64,000 nucleotides of DNA. Source: Octopus vulgaris (lineage: Eukaryota). A program made the position numbers and the translations under genes. The stretch is taken from contig OX597817.1 in the NCBI GenBank assembly GCA_951406725.2, positions 113,398,001 to 113,462,000 of the forward strand, read 5' to 3'. This document shows, piece after piece, positions 38,445-48,680 of the stretch (the stretch's first letter is position 1; each line of letters opens with the position of its first letter). Below the pieces are notes generated by a model, which saw only the letters and a list, made by a program, of their open reading frames with translations, was not told the DNA's origin and did not search any database.

Positions 38445-39562
38445 TACACCCAACCGTGCCTTAAAAAAAAAGATGGAAGAGGTTATGCATTGAATGCTGT
38501 ATATCGAAAGATAGTCGAATTGAAATGCCTTTTATCATAGATCTCGATCAGGGCTGATTTGAGGTCAAACGATAAAGTGTAATTCGAATTTTGTTGTTCT
38601 TATTATATTAATATACAGAGGTAAAACCTGAGATGTTTCTAACCTGTAGAGCAAGACTTTATAAGTCGAATATAATGCTATAGTATAAATGACTATGCTA
38701 AGATTACAATGAATAATGATGGAAGTATACACTGTATATATATAGAAGTGACAGTTTTGATAACGTTGGTGGGGAACATCTAAATTTGATACTGAAATAA
38801 CTAAGCCACATGTTCTTGGATGAATATTTATTATCTTGTTTTATTGCTAAGACTCATGTGATTGTGGTTTATTGCTATTGTTTATTTTTCTTTTGCGGGG
38901 TATGGGTTTAATCGAAGGGGTTAAACAGTAAAGTGGAAGAAACCATTGCTGGGTTATCATAATAAGGCTGGAAATGTGATCAAAATGCTCACAGCAGAAA
39001 GCACTCTCCTAACCCTTTTGCATTTAAACCAGACAAATCTGGCCCAAATATTCCATCTGGTTCATGTTCAAACTAGCCACATCCAGCTTCTCATATCTAC
39101 TGTACAATGTCATTTTAAAAAGTACATAAACAATCGGATCATTAAGGTCTTGAAGCTACATGATTAATTGAAAACAATGTGAATAAATAAGCATCACATT
39201 TGACTGAGTAATTTTAATGCTAAATGGTTAAGACACCTAAAGATGGCAGATTGGCATTTGTTTAAAGTATTGGATAGAGTATCCCATATCTCATAATATA
39301 TATTCTGACTCTCTATGTTCTGAGTTCAGATCACACTGAAATCAGTTTTGCCTTTCATCCTTTTGGGTTGATTCAAAGAAGTAACAGTTCAAGGCACTGG
39401 ATTGTCAGAACTGTTAGAGAGTCTAGCAAGATGTCTTGTGATATTTGTTCAGGCTCTTTGCAGTCTGACAACAGCAACACTTGTGAGAATACTGGTTGCC
39501 ATGCTGTATCAACACAAGTCAACAGCCTTTTCCTTTGGTAAATTCAATGAAGGGGTATGGGA

Positions 39563-39836
39563 CGTTTTAACACATCTGTTTTAGCTGTGTATATGTATAT
39601 ATATCTATGCATATGTGTGTGTGTGTGTATATGTAACAAAGTGAAGTTGTAAGGTACCGCACGAGTGGAATTATATATGAAAGAAGGTTTGAAAATGCAA
39701 ATTTCAAAGATGTTTATTCACTTGATCAGTTTCACTTTTTTAGAAGCAGATTGTCAAAAGTAACATGTAAAAGCTTAACAAAGCTTTTACGTGTTACTTT
39801 TGACAATCTTTAAAATTGCATTTTCAAATCCTCTTT

Positions 39837-39903
<67 letters not shown>

Positions 39904-40566
39904 ATGTATGTATATGTATGTATATAAATGTATATATATATGTATGTGTATATATGTATGAGTATATGTGTATGTATGTATACATGTATGTATATATATA
40001 TGTATGAGTATATATGTATGTATACATGTATGTATATATATATGTATGTATGTATGTATATATATATATGTATGTATATATATATATGTATGTATATATA
40101 TCTATGTATAAATATATGTATATATATATGTATATATATATATATGTATATATATATGTATATATATATATGTATAAATATATGTATATATATATGTATA
40201 TATATATGTATATATATATATATGTATATATATATGTATATATATATGTATATATATATGTATATATAAATATATGTATATATATATGTATATATATATA
40301 TGTATAAATATATGTATATATATATATATATGTATATACATATATATGTATATGGCGTTAGGAAGGGCATCCAGCCGTAGAAACACTGCCAGATCTGACT
40401 GGGCCTGATGAAGCCTTCCAGCTTCACAGACCCCAGTTGAACCGTCCAACCCATGCTAGCATGGAAAACGGACGCTAAATGATGATGATATATGTATATA
40501 TATATGTATATATATATATGTATGTATATATATATATATGTATGTATATATATATATGTATGTATA

Positions 40567-40623
<57 letters not shown>

Positions 40624-41039
40624 TTTATTTTAAGCAGCAGAAAATTCAACAAAATCTGTAACAGATTTTGTTGAATTTTCTGCTGCTTAAAATAAAGCAT
40701 ATTACTCTACCACTGGTATTTGAGTACTCTTTTTTCCACCTTGTTTCACATTTATGTGTTTACTCCGTTTTGACACATCTGTTTTAGCTGTGTATATGTA
40801 TATATATCTATGCATATGTGTGTGTGTGTGTATATGTAACAAAGTGAAGTTGTAAGGTACCGCACGAGTGGAATTATATATGAAAGAAGGTTTGAAAATG
40901 CAAATTTCAAAGATGTTTATTCACTTGATCAGTTTCACTTTTTTAGAAGCAGATTGTCAAAAGTAACATGTAAAAGCTTAACAAAGCTTTTACGTGTTAC
41001 TTTTGACAATCTTTAAAATTGCATTTTCAAATCCTCTTT

Positions 41040-41116
<77 letters not shown>

Positions 41117-41389
41117 ATGTATGTATATGTATGTATATAAATGTATATATATATGTATGTATGAGTATATATGTATGTATACATGTATGTATATATATAT
41201 GTATGTGTGTATGTATATATGTATGTATATATATATATGTATGTATATATATCTATGTATAAATATATGTATATATATATGTATATATATATGTATATAT
41301 ATATATGTATAAATATATGTATAAATATATGTATATATATATGTATATATATATATGTATATATATATATGTATAAATATATGTATATA

Positions 41390-41442
<53 letters not shown>

Positions 41443-41723
41443 GTATATGTATCTATATATATATGTATATATATATGTATATGTATATATATGTATATAT
41501 ATATGTATATATATATATGTATAAATATATGTATAAATATATGTATATATATATGTATATACATATATATGTATATGGCCTTAGGAAGGGCATCCAGCTG
41601 TAGAAACACTGCCAGATCTGACTGGGCCTGATGAAGCCTTCCAGCTTCACAGACCCCAGTTGAACCGTCCAACCCATGCTAGCATGGAAAACGGACGCTA
41701 AATGATGATGATATATGTATATA

Positions 41724-41776
<53 letters not shown>

Positions 41777-41836
41777 TATATATGTATATATATGTATATA
41801 TATGTATGTATATATATGTATATATATGTATGTATA

Positions 41837-41879
<43 letters not shown>

Positions 41880-42017
41880 TTTAAGCAGCAGAAAATTCAA
41901 CAAAATCTGTAACAGATTTTGTTGAATTTTCTGCTGCTTAAAATAAAGCATATTACTCTACCACTGGTATTTGAGTACTCTTTTTCTACCTTGTTTCACA
42001 TTTATGTGTTTACTCCG
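39563..42017 (+). repeat. ~1.2-kb tandem duplication (copies start at 39563 and 40766), including TA microsatellites, hairpins and an RTE tail
   Basis: Non-microsatellite parts are near-identical with a few substitutions. Confidence 0.95.
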
Positions 42018-42264
42018 GTATATATATATATATATCATCATCATCATCGTTTAACGTCCGTTTTCTGCGCTAGCACGGGTTGGACGGTTCGACCGGGGTC
42101 TGGGAAGCCAGGGGCCGCACCAGGCTCCAGTCTGATTTGGCAGAGTTTCTACGGCTGGATGCCCTTCCTAACGCCAACCACTCCGTGAGTGGATTGGGTG
42201 CTTTTTACGTGCCACCTGCACAGGGGCCGGGGGGTCCGGCATTGGTCGCGATCGGTTCGAGCTT

Positions 42265-45200
42265 TTAACGTGCCAGCGGCACAGGGGCAACTGGGACCGG
42301 GGTACTTTGAATGGGTAGAGGGTATGTGGAATTGCTGCAGAAAGCAGCCCGGGTCTTTGCAGTCACAGCATATCTCCAGAGATCTCGGTCTTTCGTCATT
42401 GCCTCAGTGAGGCCCAATGCTCTGAGGTCATGCTTGACTACCTCATCCCATGTCTTCCTGGGTCTACCTCTCCCCCTGATACCTTCAACTGTTTGGGAGT
42501 GGCACTTCTTCACACATCTCTCTTCATCCATCCGCAGCACATGACCATACCATCGCAAGCGTCGCTCTTGCACACCACATCTGATGCTTCTTATATCCAG
42601 CATTTCTCTTAGGATGCTTACACTCTGTCTTGCGTGCACACTGACACTACACATCCAGCGGATCATGCTAGCTTCATTTCTTTCAAGTCTACGCATGTCC
42701 TCTGCAGTCACTGCCCATGTTTCATTACCGTGAAGCATGGCAGTTCGCACACATGCATCATACAATCTACCTTTCGCTCTGAGGGAGAGACCTTTTGTTG
42801 CCAGTAGGGGTAGGAGCTTTCTGAACTTTGCCCAGGCTATTCGTATTCTAGTGGTGATACTCTCTGTGCAACCACCTCCGCTACTAACTTGGTCACCCAG
42901 GTAGCGGAAACTATCAACTACTTCTAGTTTCTCTCCCTGGAGTGTGATGGAATCTGTTTTCTGAGTGTCTGTTGTGTCTATTGTCCCTGTGCATCTGCCG
43001 CACATGAAAGCTATCTTATCTGTTAATTTCCCTTTAATGTTGCTGCACCTCTTATGTGTCCATAACTTACATTGGGTGCATCTTATGGAGTTTCTACCTG
43101 TACCTTTCCTACAGATTGAGCAGGGCCACCTACCCGAGGGTGTGTGTGCTGAGTACCTCTTGCTGCTTACTAATACTTAGGTCTTTGCTACATTTATTCT
43201 AAGGCCCTTTGATTCCAACCCTTGCTTCCACACCCGAAATTTCTCTTCTAGTTCCGGTAGTGATTCTGCTATGAGAGCTAGGTCATCGGCATAGAGGAGC
43301 TCCCAGGGGCATCCCGTTTTGAATTCCTCTGTTATTGCCTGAAGGACTATGATGAATAAAAGGGGACTGAGGGCTGAGCCCTGGTGCACACCTACTTCTA
43401 CCCGGAATTCTTCACTATATTCGTTGCCAATCCTAACCTTGCTGACAGCCTCTCTGTATAGAGCCTGTACAGCCCTTATTAGCCATTCTTCAATCTCCAG
43501 TTTCCGCATCGACCACCAGATGAGGGAACGGGGAACCCTGTCAAAGGCTTTCTCCAAGTCTACAAAAGCTATGTAGAGGGGTTTATCTTTAGCTAGGTAC
43601 TTCTCCTGCAGTTGTCGGACCAGGAATATAGCATCAGTGGTGCTTCTACCTGGTACAAAACCGAACTGCATTTCATCTAAACAAATTCTCTCCCTAATGA
43701 GATGGGTTATGACCTTCTCTGAGACCTTCATCACCTGGTCCAACAGTTTGATACCTCTGTAGTTATTTCTATCTAGAGCATCACCCTTACCCTTGTAGCA
43801 GTTGACTATGGTGCTGCTGCACCAGTCATTGGGTATGACTCCATTGTGAACTACCTGGTTTACAATGCGGGTGACTATGGTATAGCCCACATAGCCAGCT
43901 GTTTTAAGCATCTCAGCAGTGATTCCTGATAGGCCAGGGGCTTTGCCTGGTTTCATATCCTTAATTGCCTTATCTACAAGGGAGCTGTCTATTCGGGTAG
44001 CTGGTCCCTCTACTGGGTCAACATTTGGCAGGCTCTCCTCCTCCCATTCATTCTCCTCATTCAGCAGTCTTTCATAATGGCTTCTCCAAGCCTCTTTCTT
44101 TTCACTAGCAGTAAAAGCAAGTGCCCCATCATCCATGCGGACACATTTCTCTCCTATAACATCACTATTTTCTCTGACACACTGTCTGGCAATCCGAAAT
44201 ACTTCAGCTCTTTGATCCTCACGTCGCTGGACATTGGCAAACTTCTTCTTTTCTGCTACGTCTTTGGCTATGTATACCTGCCGCCCAGCCTCCCTTTTGG
44301 CTATCTGGTACAGTTCCCTGCTGCCCCCATCCTTCCAGGCTTTCCAGGCCCGTCTCTTTTTACAGATGGCTTTATCTACTGCACTATTCCACCACCACGT
44401 AATTCTAGGTCTGGAAGGGACTTTGCACCATCCACAGACTCGGTCTGTGGCACTCAGCAAGCTGTCCCGTAGGAATTCCCAGCTACCTTCTATGTCTGAC
44501 GTCTGAAGCTCCTCCTCCCTCTCATCAAATTTCTTGATGAGTATGTCCCTAAATTTCTGACCATGTGAAGGGTTCTTTAGCCTCCAAATCCTTCTTTTCT
44601 GGATTGGTTTGTTTCTTGGAGTCCTTCTGGCCTCAAGCTTAAAGTCACTGATGATTAGCCTATGCTGAGGGATACATTCTTCACCCGGGAGGGTTTTTGT
44701 ATTCAAGAGCAACCCTGCATCCCGCTGTCTGGTGAGGATGAAGTCTATTTGGCTAGCGGAGTCTCCTGACTGATAAGTTATAAGGTGGCAGACTGGCTTC
44801 TTGAAGTTAGTGTTGCAGATTGAAAGGTTACATGCATCACAGAATTCCAGCAGTCTAGTTCCCTCATCATTTCTGGTGCCAATACCATAGCCACCATGTA
44901 CCCCAGTGAAGATACCCGATTCCCGCCCAACATGCCCATTAAAATCTCCACCTACAAAGATGAGGTCCTTGCTACTAGTCTTTGAAGTAGCCTGCAGAAG
45001 GCTATCATAAAAGTTGTCCTTCTGATCATTTGGTAGTCCCGCTTGTGGGGCATAGGCGGAGATAATCATAGCTGTGCCACTCTGTAGGACCAACCTGAGC
45101 TTAAGCACTTTATCGCAGACCCTGACAACCTCTATGACCTCATCCACCCATTTCTCCGCAAGGAGAATGCCTACACCCCCTACACCTTCCACGTTACCTT

Positions 45201-45519
45201 GCCAGAAGAGTTTGTACCTAAGTGCCTTGCCCGTGAGGACCCTAGCCGAAGCACCTCTCCATCTTACCTCTTGTATGCAGCATACATCAACCTGTCTTCT
45301 CTCTAGCATCTCTACAATCTCACTAGACTTGCCTGTCAATGTACCAACATTGATAGTGCCAACTCTGAAAACTGGGAAGGAGATGTGGGGGGAGGGGGAA
45401 TTCAGCGCCTGAGAAGAGGAGGGTTGTTGTGGTGGTGATAGTTTTCGTCGCATTTTTCTTTTGATCTCTCTTCCGACCTGTCCACGCCGTGGACAGGAGC
45501 TGGTGTTAGCAGTGGACAT
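42265..45519 (-). pseudogene. RTE ORF (~1084 codons): APE endonuclease + reverse transcriptase + embedded PHD-like finger; one premature TAA at 43177-43179
   Basis: APE motifs GTINV, IQEVR, SAYAPQ, GDFNGHVG, IDFIL; RT motifs NYRGIKLL, QFGF, FVDLEKAFD, GVHQGSALSP, YADD, FRYLG; RTE tail LRWYGHVLR, RGRGRPRKTW; the two listed ORFs are in the same frame. Confidence 0.95.
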
Positions 45520-45953
45520 TCGTTATCGTCACTGAGTAACGAAATTAGGTAGCGTAGTAAGGAGGAAAAATACAGATATTCTAGAGTTGAGTTGGGGGGG
45601 TCCAGCTGAGAAAGGTTTTACCAGTGAAAAGAGAGGGAGAGATAGTAGAAGGGGTGCGGTCAGGGAAGGTTGGGGTAAGGAGGAACGATGGCAGGAAGGG
45701 TTGGTGTATGTTCGTAAGAAATAAAAACGTAGGATATTACGGAGGGGACTGGAAGGAGATAGTCGGATTGAGGCAGTATCAGGAGGAAGCGTAAGATCAG
45801 TGGGCAGTTGATGAACTGTGGCGCTAGCAGCTTGTCTTTTCACAGTGAAAGCATATGAGGAGAAGGGGGGAGGAGGAGGGAGTAGGGCGTATCCGGTGTA
45901 GATGGTGAGAACAGTGTTCACCGGTATTGGTGGTGGGGGTGGGGGCGGGCGCA

Positions 45954-47249
45954 CCGTCGATGGCGGAAAGATGGGGAAGATGGATTAAGGCTTGGAGGTA
46001 GCCTAAAAAAGGTTATATTTCGTAGAGAGAGAGATAGGGAAGCCAAAATCAAGTTATGGCGGAAAGATGGGGTTAATGCTTAAAGGTAGCTTAAAAGGTT
46101 ATATTTCGTAGAGAGAGAGATAGGGAAGCCAAAATCAAGTTATGGCGGAAAGATGGGGTTAATGCTTAAAGGTAGCTTAAAAGGTTATATTTCGTAGAGA
46201 GAGAGATAGGGAAGCCAAAATCAAGTTATGGCGGAAAGATGGGGTTAATGCTTAAAGGTAGCTTAAAAGGTTATATTTCGTAGAGAGAGAGATAGGGAAG
46301 CCAAAATCAAGTTATGGCGGAAAGATGGGGTTAATGCTTAAAGGTAGCTTAAAAGGTTATATTTCGTAGAGAGAGAGATAGGGAAGCCAAAATCAAGTTA
46401 TGGCGGAAAGATGGGGTTAATGCTTAAAGGTAGCTTAAAAGGTTATATTTCGTAGAGAGAGAGATAGGGAAGCCAAAATCAAGTTATGGCGGAAAGATGG
46501 GGTTAATGCTTAAAGGTAGCTTAAAAGGTTATATTTCGTAGAGAGAGAGATAGGAAAGACAAAATCAAGTTATGGCGGAAAGATGGGGTTAATGTTTAAA
46601 GGTAGCCTAAAAGGTTATATTTCGTAGTGAGAGAGATAGGAAAGACAAATCGTTATTTCAACTTGAGACATTTAACAGAGGCAACGTATGAATAAATGTT
46701 GTAACAGCGAATGAATGTATGCCGTGCTATGTATGGAAGAATAAAGATAATAAGATAAATTTTTAAAAAACTTGCTGTGGGTATCGACCGGAAGTTGAGT
46801 TGAAGGAGAAAGGAAGTTGAATTGGGAACTGTAAATTGTAATGGCGATTTTCAAGTTTGAGCAGAAGAAGAAGAAGAAGAGGAGGAAAGACCGTCGATGG
46901 CGGAAAGATGGGGAAGATGGGATTAAGGCTTGGAGGTAGCCTAAAAAAGGTTATATTTCGTAGAGAGAGAGATAGGAAAGCCAAAATCAAGTTATGGCGG
47001 AAAGATGGGGTTAATGCTTAAAGGTAGCTTAAAAGGTTATATTTCGTAGAGAGAGAGATAGGGAAGCCAAAATCAAGTTATGGCGGAAAGATGGGGTTAA
47101 TGCTTAAAGGTAGCTTAAAAGGTTATATTTCGTAGAGAGAGAGATAGGGAAGCCAAAATCAAGTTATGGCGGAAAGATGGGGTTAATGCTTAAAGGTAGC
47201 TTAAAAGGTTATATTTCGTAGAGAGAGAGAGATAGGGAAGCCAAAATCA
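45954..47249 (-). repeat. Two blocks of 86-bp tandem monomers (7+partial and 3+partial) separated by ~240 bp of unique sequence
   Basis: Unit starts (cgtagagag) at 46021, 46107, 46193, 46279, 46365, 46451, 46537, 46623 and 46959, 47045, 47131, 47217. Confidence 0.95.
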
Positions 47250-47430: not shown

Positions 47431-48680
47431 ATAACTTAGAAAGGTTTTGGCCAGTATTGGCCCAGGCCATGTCTGACTTAACAGCACCACCTGGCGAAGT
47501 CTTTCAATTCAGGATTTGGGCACCAAGGCCCATTCGAGCAGAGAGTTATTGTTTGCGGTGACATATCCGGGTGTGGGTGGTTTGTCCGGGTCTGTTTGAA
47601 GGAATTTGTCCAAAGACTTCTTGAATTTTGTGTGGTCAGTTTCTGTTTTGACATGTCCTGGTGTAATGTTGAAGAGTGCGGGTCTAATTGAGGTGAAATA
47701 ATTGTGCCGTATTGTCGTTATGTGATGCGATTTAGATTTTTGTTGTGGACGGATGGCACGTGGTCCAAGCCTTGGATGTATTTTGAAGGTGATGCTAACA
47801 TCATTCGGACAGTGCTTATGGAATATTTTCCACATCATACAGATAATGTAGCATTCACGGCGTCGTTGGAGTGAATACAGTTTCAGCTTCTCTAATCTAC
47901 CCCAGTAGTCGAGGTCTGACATGCCATCTATCTTTTTTGTGATTGACCTTTGGGGAGCTTCAATTCTCATAATATTTTGTTTTGTGTAGGGAGACCACAG
48001 TGGACAGCAGTATTCAAGGTGGGGTCAGGCAAAAGTGGAGAAGAGAAGGATAATGGTGTGGGAATCTCTCGACTTGAGGGTTCTGAGAATCCAGGAACAC
48101 ATTCTGCGGGCCATGTCAACTTTGCTGCTTATATGTGTAGCCCAGCTTATGTTGTTGTCCACTGTTACTCCCAAGTCTCTGATGTTGTTAGACGCCATGA
48201 GAATTTCTCCAGTAGGAAGGGAGTATGGGAGTCTCAGAGCATCCTCCCTTCCAAAGTGGATCAGTTCGAATTTGTCTTCGTTTAGCAACATGTTGTTCCT
48301 TTCCGCACATCGGACAACAGCCAGTAGGTCTGACTGAAGACTTATTCGGTCATCCACGCCATTGATGACCTGTAGCTTGGAATCATCAGCGAAGGTTCTG
48401 ATGTTACTGAAATCACTCATAAGAAATACGCTCACGTGGTGTTCCAGTTACATGAGGATTTCTTTAATTCTTGTGAGGCAATCTTCAAAGTTGCCTATGT
48501 GGTTTGGAACATCCAGTGGGCAATATGTATTGCATTTGACTATACTGTGTTGTCTTATGTATACAATTAGAGTGTCAAATACTGAATTTGAGTATGACAG
48601 TAAGAACTGGGGTGTAAGGTCATCACAGATATATGCAGCAACTCCACCACAGCTCCTTTCCCTTCTGTCTGTTTGCAGTA
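47431..48680 (-). mobile_element. CR1/L2-group LINE fragment with an internal deletion
   Basis: GGVAAYI (APE), FADDSKL, DLGVTVDNN, PHLEYCCPLWSP, LKLYSLQRRRE. Confidence 0.85.

Follow-up and report, generated by a model that had tools for sequence, protein, structure and literature searches.

The window, a stretch of 64,000 nucleotides of Octopus vulgaris DNA, contains an RTE-type LINE element on the minus strand, which runs from 47249 down to about 42034. Both ends of the element adjoin (TA)n. Read from its 5' end, the element is laid out as follows:

47249, minus strand: 5' end of the element, abutting (TA)n; the outermost sub-repeat is incomplete.
46891..47249, minus strand: outer macro-unit, 5'-truncated; four ~86-bp sub-repeats, the last of which is a 97-bp terminal variant.
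46652..46890, minus strand: spacer, the first half of the macro-unit; 239 bp, with a (CTT)n tract, a third GCCAT word and the CCGGTCGAT motif.
About 46785-46870, minus strand, inside the spacer: zone matching the family-wide enrichment of 5' ends, from a position test across copies.
45954..46651, minus strand: sub-repeat part of the ORF-proximal macro-unit; eight ~86-bp sub-repeats, the dominant variant being private to the locus.
45520..45953, minus strand: tether (non-array 5' UTR); ~430 bp, non-repeated and pyrimidine-rich.
42265..45519, minus strand: single ORF; AP endonuclease, reverse transcriptase (RT) and a PHD finger inserted after the RT core.
42049..42264, minus strand: 3' UTR, retained in all ORF-less derivatives.
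42034..42048, minus strand: tail, (GAT)5, followed by (TA)n target DNA.

The anchor ATGGCGGAAAGATGGG was found in 12 units, eight in block 1 (45954-46651) and four in block 2 (46891-47249), in agreement with the seven or more and three or more units counted in an earlier, sequence-only reading of this DNA. Seven of the 86-mers in the window are identical, and the array has a TRF score of 1345. That reading had also noted the same variant unit at the ORF-proximal edge of both blocks, at 45954 and 46891, and it is indeed present in each; the two copies measure 96 and 97 bp and lie 937 bp apart. The element does end mid-unit at (TA)n, with an incomplete outermost unit at the 47249 junction, and the minus-strand ORF has the proposed APE and RT domains. 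The array had been placed directly 5' of this ORF; in fact, the tether intervenes. The first ~50 bp of the tether form tandem repeats (about 34 bp) in sister subfamilies. The ORF of the window copy is interrupted by one in-frame stop (43177-43179). Its PHD finger lies at 42990-43120 on the minus strand (Pfam E 2.2e-5), and PF00628 was also found in many homologues, among the 120 listed. A 151-aa frame at 45529-45984, without a Pfam match, was taken as a chance frame. Beyond the 3' end, the region 39500-41900 holds a (TA)-rich tandem duplication of ~1.2 kb, each copy of which contains an older, oppositely oriented fragment resembling an RTE tail. Beyond the 5' end, a broken remnant on the minus strand (47509-48447, without a Pfam match) resembles the C-terminal portion of the RT of a different LINE, presumably a CR1-like one.

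By structure, the element is of the RTE type and not an L1. It has a single APE-RT ORF, a microsatellite tail and bipartite ORF-less derivatives, and the L1 clade traits, ORF1 and poly(A), are absent. The tail was (GAT)n, a short tandem repeat, at all 104 loci with a located tail pattern. L1 ORF2p aligned to the ORF over the RT region only. The homologues were APE-RT proteins of ~1000-1100 aa, including soybean elements in whose clusters some members were named 'Craniofacial development protein 2', a label that we take to be typical of RTE endonucleases. RTE-2_OV, an octopus RTE expressed in the brain, resembles the window element in its single APE-RT ORF, zinc-finger region and microsatellite 3' end, as described in the sections of PMC9115989 devoted to it, and those sections mention no tandem 5' array. 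Identity of the two elements was rejected, each of the six published RTE-2_OV primers mismatching the window element at 7 positions.

Several sister copies have open frames of 1000-1085 aa. The singleton changes in the ORFs comprised 191 non-synonymous or stop and 94 synonymous changes, as against 22 and 36 (non-synonymous and synonymous) for the changes shared by at least four copies (Fisher p 5e-5). Since the shared changes are mostly synonymous and the singletons are not, the family has spread by its own working ORF, and the lineage ORF is under purifying selection. RNA editing was rejected as the source of the differences between copies, as A>G and T>C changes numbered 22 each and the spectrum was strand-symmetric.

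The linkage of the array to the family was followed through the 2.8-Gb genome. A 24-mer of the 86-bp unit (at most one mismatch) gave 45 matches, and the reversed control gave none. All 45 fell in nine loci, and in each the same tether and RTE body follow immediately; the 86-mer thus lay 5' of this family at 9/9 loci. A 22-mer of the spacer matched 155 times genome-wide; the first 100 of these matches represent 35 loci, and all 35 have the tether and then the RTE 3' end downstream. The possibility, raised in the sequence-only reading, that the array is an ordinary minisatellite occurring independently of the RTE was not borne out: no array lay away from the LINE at the 9 or the 35 loci. The same reading had asked whether other copies lack the array. 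An unselected set was drawn from the 318 matches to a 22-mer of the tether, the first 100 of which correspond to 91 loci. The array was reached in 69 of them; the other 22 were truncated within the tether, in one case at a run of N. None of the 91 carried another 5' module in place of the array. Four of the 22 tether-ending copies (L102, L118, L146 and L148) start at nearly one tether sequence (the GACACTGC region), which is possibly a truncation hot spot or a minor start.

The arrays begin at clean target junctions, with (TA)n as the 5' flank in 84/123 cases. Short-read contigs of other public runs, among them runs labelled as two other organisms, contained monomer and spacer pieces, one of them spanning the junction between spacer and variant unit. 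Array and tether pieces were also present in contigs of four runs guessed to be RNA; such contigs tell neither start, strand nor level. The array is the element's own 5' end, moves with the family and is not a neighbouring minisatellite. The preference for (TA)n targets is strong family-wide, (TA)n being found on both sides in 58/104 loci. Target-site duplications of at least 7 bp were absent from 18 non-(TA) sites and are undefinable within (TA)n. Two near-neighbour pairs (L033/L037 and L062/L063) have common 5' junctions and flanks and are probably local segmental duplications. Downstream of several copies, in the flanks of L038, L114 and L116, lie older RTE-type 3' UTR relatives that contain tandem repeats of ~62 bp.

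Comparison of the copies revealed that the true repeat is a spacer followed by k copies of the ~86-bp sub-repeat. The units measure 312 bp where k=1 and about 250-393 bp in copies that mostly have k=2 and differ in their internal deletions; most subfamilies have one or two 86-bp-type sub-repeats per unit. The window subfamily has runs of 1-16 sub-repeats, its 937-bp unit corresponding to k=8. The 937-bp higher-order period of the sequence-only reading is therefore correct as a spacing at the window locus but not as a general period, since it occurs once and other copies differ. Similarly, the "~240-bp unique spacer" holds for its length and not for its uniqueness, the spacer 22-mer being repeated genome-wide and the spacer forming half of the real unit. 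The array units are AT-rich (36% GC). Array lengths ranged from 15 bp to over 14.5 kb, and unit numbers from part of one unit to about 40. Arrays above 2.5 kb were found in 13/69 loci, and several exceeded 11 kb. Most of the 13 meet (TA)n at a clean junction; three are open-ended or run into N, and their lengths are minima. A small inverted repeat, CCGCC-AT(C/T)-GGCGG, closes most macro-units; it is broken by one change at 46891-46903 in the window copy and by a C-to-A change in a large subgroup.

The unit type tracks the ORF phylogeny. Trees were built from 52 and 61 ORF bodies, which diverged by no more than about 2.6%. In them, the 86-bp-expanded and 312-bp unit types formed one clade (100/100), the remaining types formed another (100/100), and the 349-bp type was a subclade (100/98), the bootstrap of the second tree being not fully settled. 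Within single loci, the units carried variants of their own. A window-private variant occupies 8/10 internal monomers and is present in no other of the 8 loci compared; the copy with 16 monomers has a private variant in 5/15 of them. Locus-private variants were found in 24 and 18 of the 36 units of one array, and in sets of 2-4 of 36 in another. Their recurrence over many units points to local growth, which indicates that the arrays were amplified in place or in an unsampled parent.

ORF-less derivatives, in which the tether is joined to the last 240-340 bp of the element, accounted for 52/91 unselected loci, and 43 of these 52 contain the array. At least three different deletion junctions recur at many sites, one being common to 52/68 ORF-less copies. 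That these copies keep the array despite the loss of the ORF would fit a cis requirement. They resemble Bov-A, RTESINE and WALLSI3, in which an internal deletion keeps the 5' UTR and the 3' end and which multiply in trans, as outlined in the relevant sections of PMC5786205; the same sections state that bipartite ORF-less derivatives have been reported only for RTE, Ingi, Vingi and R2. The octopus derivatives differ in carrying a tandem array, a word ('tandem') that is absent from the main text of that paper, and in that a 5' ribozyme was not found with Rfam or with our own descriptor, which had no positive control.

To locate the putative promoter, we applied the truncation-profile approach as set out in the corresponding part of PMC6454616, with unit positions given on a 393-bp reference and the array phases at nine loci set by hand. 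The end-position tests left out 14 A- and C-type loci and the open-ended arrays, and the exposure-null test also left out ends beyond 2 kb. The 5' ends were dispersed overall, without a sharp truncation peak. Unit positions 16-116, in the spacer, held 24/53 ends, where exposure predicts 11.9 (width 100, scan p 0.005). Four widths were tried, and the narrower ones (60, 30 and 10) yielded p values of 0.03, 0.22 and 0.33. Under a uniform-in-unit null, 28/63 ends fell in the spacer zone against 16.7 expected (scan p 0.053). Ends were depleted beside the terminal GCCAT word (3 vs 9.8 expected). The junctions favour TA microhomology (13 vs 4.5 expected), which also shapes the end positions.

Motif and composition analysis covered the window units and 74 proximal units. 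The YY1-like core named in the sequence-only reading is real in so far as ATGGCGG occurs in every window unit (chance 0.4% in a shuffled 86-mer); the GCCATCTT motif of mouse L1 monomers is not there, and the unit reads CCGCCATAAC. The GCCAT core closes the unit in 69/74 proximal copies; CCGCCAT is present in 49/74 and the full YY1 motif GCCATNTT in only 9/74. With this count and the depletion of ends by GCCAT, the octopus RTE does not show the YY1 site near the truncation point that marks the rodent L1 monomers. TATAWA was absent from the 74 proximal units. The CpG observed/expected ratio was 1.33 in the arrays, 0.77 in the tether, 0.31 in the ORF and 0.95 in the 3' UTR; the argument for a promoter from CpG is weakened because the 3' UTR is also undepleted.

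A structured RNA derived from the array, which had been offered as an alternative to the promoter, gained no support from the Rfam search or our own descriptor. Among the matches listed, Rfam showed no ribozyme inside the element, either in the window copy or at seven other loci (150 of 169 rows). The descriptor, run without a positive control, found no 5' ribozyme of the HDV-like type that would fix the 5' end. The window element gave a single sub-threshold snoRNA match, in the ORF; at the seven other loci, the sub-threshold miRNA-like matches among those listed were attributed to the (TA)n flanks. The hammerhead core CTGANGA was absent from both strands of 11 5' regions. A retrozyme or Penelope-type hammerhead repeat was rejected, as there is no hammerhead core per unit and the one hammerhead among the Rfam matches listed lies in flanking DNA. 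This match, at L042 1543-1616 (minus strand), is a sub-threshold HH9 hit of 34 bits (E 7e-5) outside the element.

Taken as sequence evidence, these data are consistent, at moderate strength, with a broad, TATA-less putative start zone in the spacer. They single out neither the 86-mer nor YY1. Of the earlier proposal, the monomer-array 5' end linked to this RT stands, and the candidate promoter unit becomes the larger, spacer-containing unit in place of the 86-mer.

With the above results in hand, we take the array to be the 5' end of a young family of RTE-type LINEs, and we consider it probable that each macro-unit functions as an internal promoter without a TATA box, whose starts would be spread over a broad zone of the spacer. 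LINEs lose their 5' end first. For a terminal array to persist across all subfamilies and the ORF-less offshoots, it must therefore be copied into RNA, and this is most simply explained if transcription starts there. In the mechanism we propose, transcription would start within the array units, and each jump would lose the sequence upstream of the start or truncation point. Only copies keeping at least one unit could be copied again, and slippage or unequal exchange at the insertion site would refill the stack. In the window subfamily, the same instability may have multiplied the 86-bp sub-repeat (1-16 copies per run), giving the array its two-tier look.

The array could instead be a passenger VNTR in the 5' UTR, persisting by quick re-expansion, with the promoter situated in the tether or borrowed from upstream host DNA. 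End rates were fairly flat, as this reading would have it, at about 0.84 per kb for the first 2 kb of the array (range 0.65-1.24) and 0.55 for the tether; for the ORF, the rate was about 0.36 (our own arithmetic, from 35/57 copies on four contigs), and this contrast with the array counts in favour of the macro-unit promoter. Most 5' ends could have arisen simply by the random truncation of long RNAs, and the enrichment in the spacer is borderline under the uniform null. The entire 5' region is, moreover, a stack of unstable repeats, the tether varying from 354 to 863 bp across copies. The fungal telomeric LINEs FoTeR and MoTeR provide a parallel, having a 5' region rich in variable tandem repeats, and for FoTeR the pertinent sections of PMC12857005 show no promoter function; they differ from the octopus RTE in their short VNTRs, their REL endonuclease and the lack of a promoter-unit model in those sections. 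A promoter in the tether, however, would lose the array at the first jump, and yet 69/91 loci carry it. No shared host flank was noticed by eye at the 5' junctions except in the two near-neighbour duplicate pairs, and the ORF-less families retained the array while losing almost all else. Weighing these points, we regard a passenger array as unlikely.

A further explanation assigns the units a role as a needed enhancer or as a cis-element at the RNA level (packaging, export or a truncation buffer). Very long source arrays would then initiate transcription at their outer end, and short arrays would be products of truncation or collapse. Very long arrays exist, as the 13/69 loci above 2.5 kb and the several above 11 kb attest. 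The five autonomous copies with arrays above 2.5 kb have 1, 1, 0, 0 and 3 private substitutions; the 54 others average 5.9 (p 0.002). Such low counts are expected for source-like or very young copies. This effect was not repeated in the ORF-less copies (11 long vs 57 short, p 0.45), and it is partly clade-driven, three of the five belonging to the youngest clade. The long arrays hold proximal variants missing from their short sisters (11/12; 8/8). The long-array copies as they stand are thus unsupported as direct parents of the short ones, and no structured-RNA family matching the units was among the Rfam matches listed. We find an enhancer or RNA-level role of this kind quite improbable. An independent satellite or an assembly artefact abutting the RTE, to which the three long arrays running into N stretches might point, is largely refuted and barely credible, no array having been found without the tether and short-read contigs of other public runs holding monomer and spacer pieces, although the unit counts at single loci are assembly values.

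The macro-unit promoter that we favour can be extended, tentatively and with some doubt, to a wider scheme. A promoter stack that renews itself may have evolved independently in an RTE LINE, with the length of the array acting as the dial for activity. Arrays grown in place to 10-40 units would become the sources of subfamilies, and their daughters would receive short stacks. The ORF-less derivatives, which are the majority of the 5'-bearing copies, would exploit the stack and seed multi-kilobase satellite-like arrays.

The nearest known parallel is the 5' UTR of mouse and rat L1. According to the sections of PMC5381506 and PMC6454616 that deal with it, this region has variable tandem units at the extreme 5' end and a tether to the ORF, 5' ends inside the unit, a unit sequence that varies by subfamily and GCCAT words on the sense strand, all as in the octopus RTE; mouse alone is said there (PMC6454616) to have such repeats near the L1 5' end in high number. 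Unlike rodent L1, the octopus element is of the single-ORF RTE type, with a two-tier AT-rich unit, arrays of about 40 units and over 14 kb, and an array shared with ORF-less derivatives. It also lacks a sharp truncation peak, has none at the YY1-like word, and its promoter role is putative. By analogy, the octopus array is likely to work as the rodent L1 monomer promoter does, without the element being a member of L1.

Variable tandem 5' repeats are also present in Dictyostelium TRE5-A and trypanosome SLACS/CZAR. In contrast to the octopus RTE, these belong to other LINE clades and have short arrays and site-specific targets. The A-module of TRE5-A is a ~200-bp 5' module with promoter activity, as reported in the part of PMC3159450 that treats it. 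Thirteen recently active RTE families have been counted in an octopus, and 5' arrays are not described in the sections of PMC13282606 giving this count. Our search was confined to openly accessible papers, leaving aside repeat databases such as Repbase and Dfam and the library of PMC13282606, and found no published RTE or cephalopod LINE with tandem 5' repeats.

The design of monomers plus tether is thus known from mouse and rat LINE-1, and what appears to be new here is its occurrence in an unrelated LINE group, RTE, together with the two-tier unit. Work on how LINEs retain a 5' promoter, although every jump costs them 5' sequence, has been almost confined to rodent L1, and the replenishment of its monomers is called unclear in the relevant section of PMC6454616. 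Where elements like this one occur, their true 5' end will escape short-read assemblies and consensus libraries. The truncation-and-regrowth model can be put to the test in a second, unrelated clade, whose young copies number in the hundreds and have arrays from under one to about 40 units; the natural unit deletion variants and the ORF-less derivatives add to its use. Such a clade also suggests how the promoter of a LINE can give rise to dispersed satellite-like arrays.
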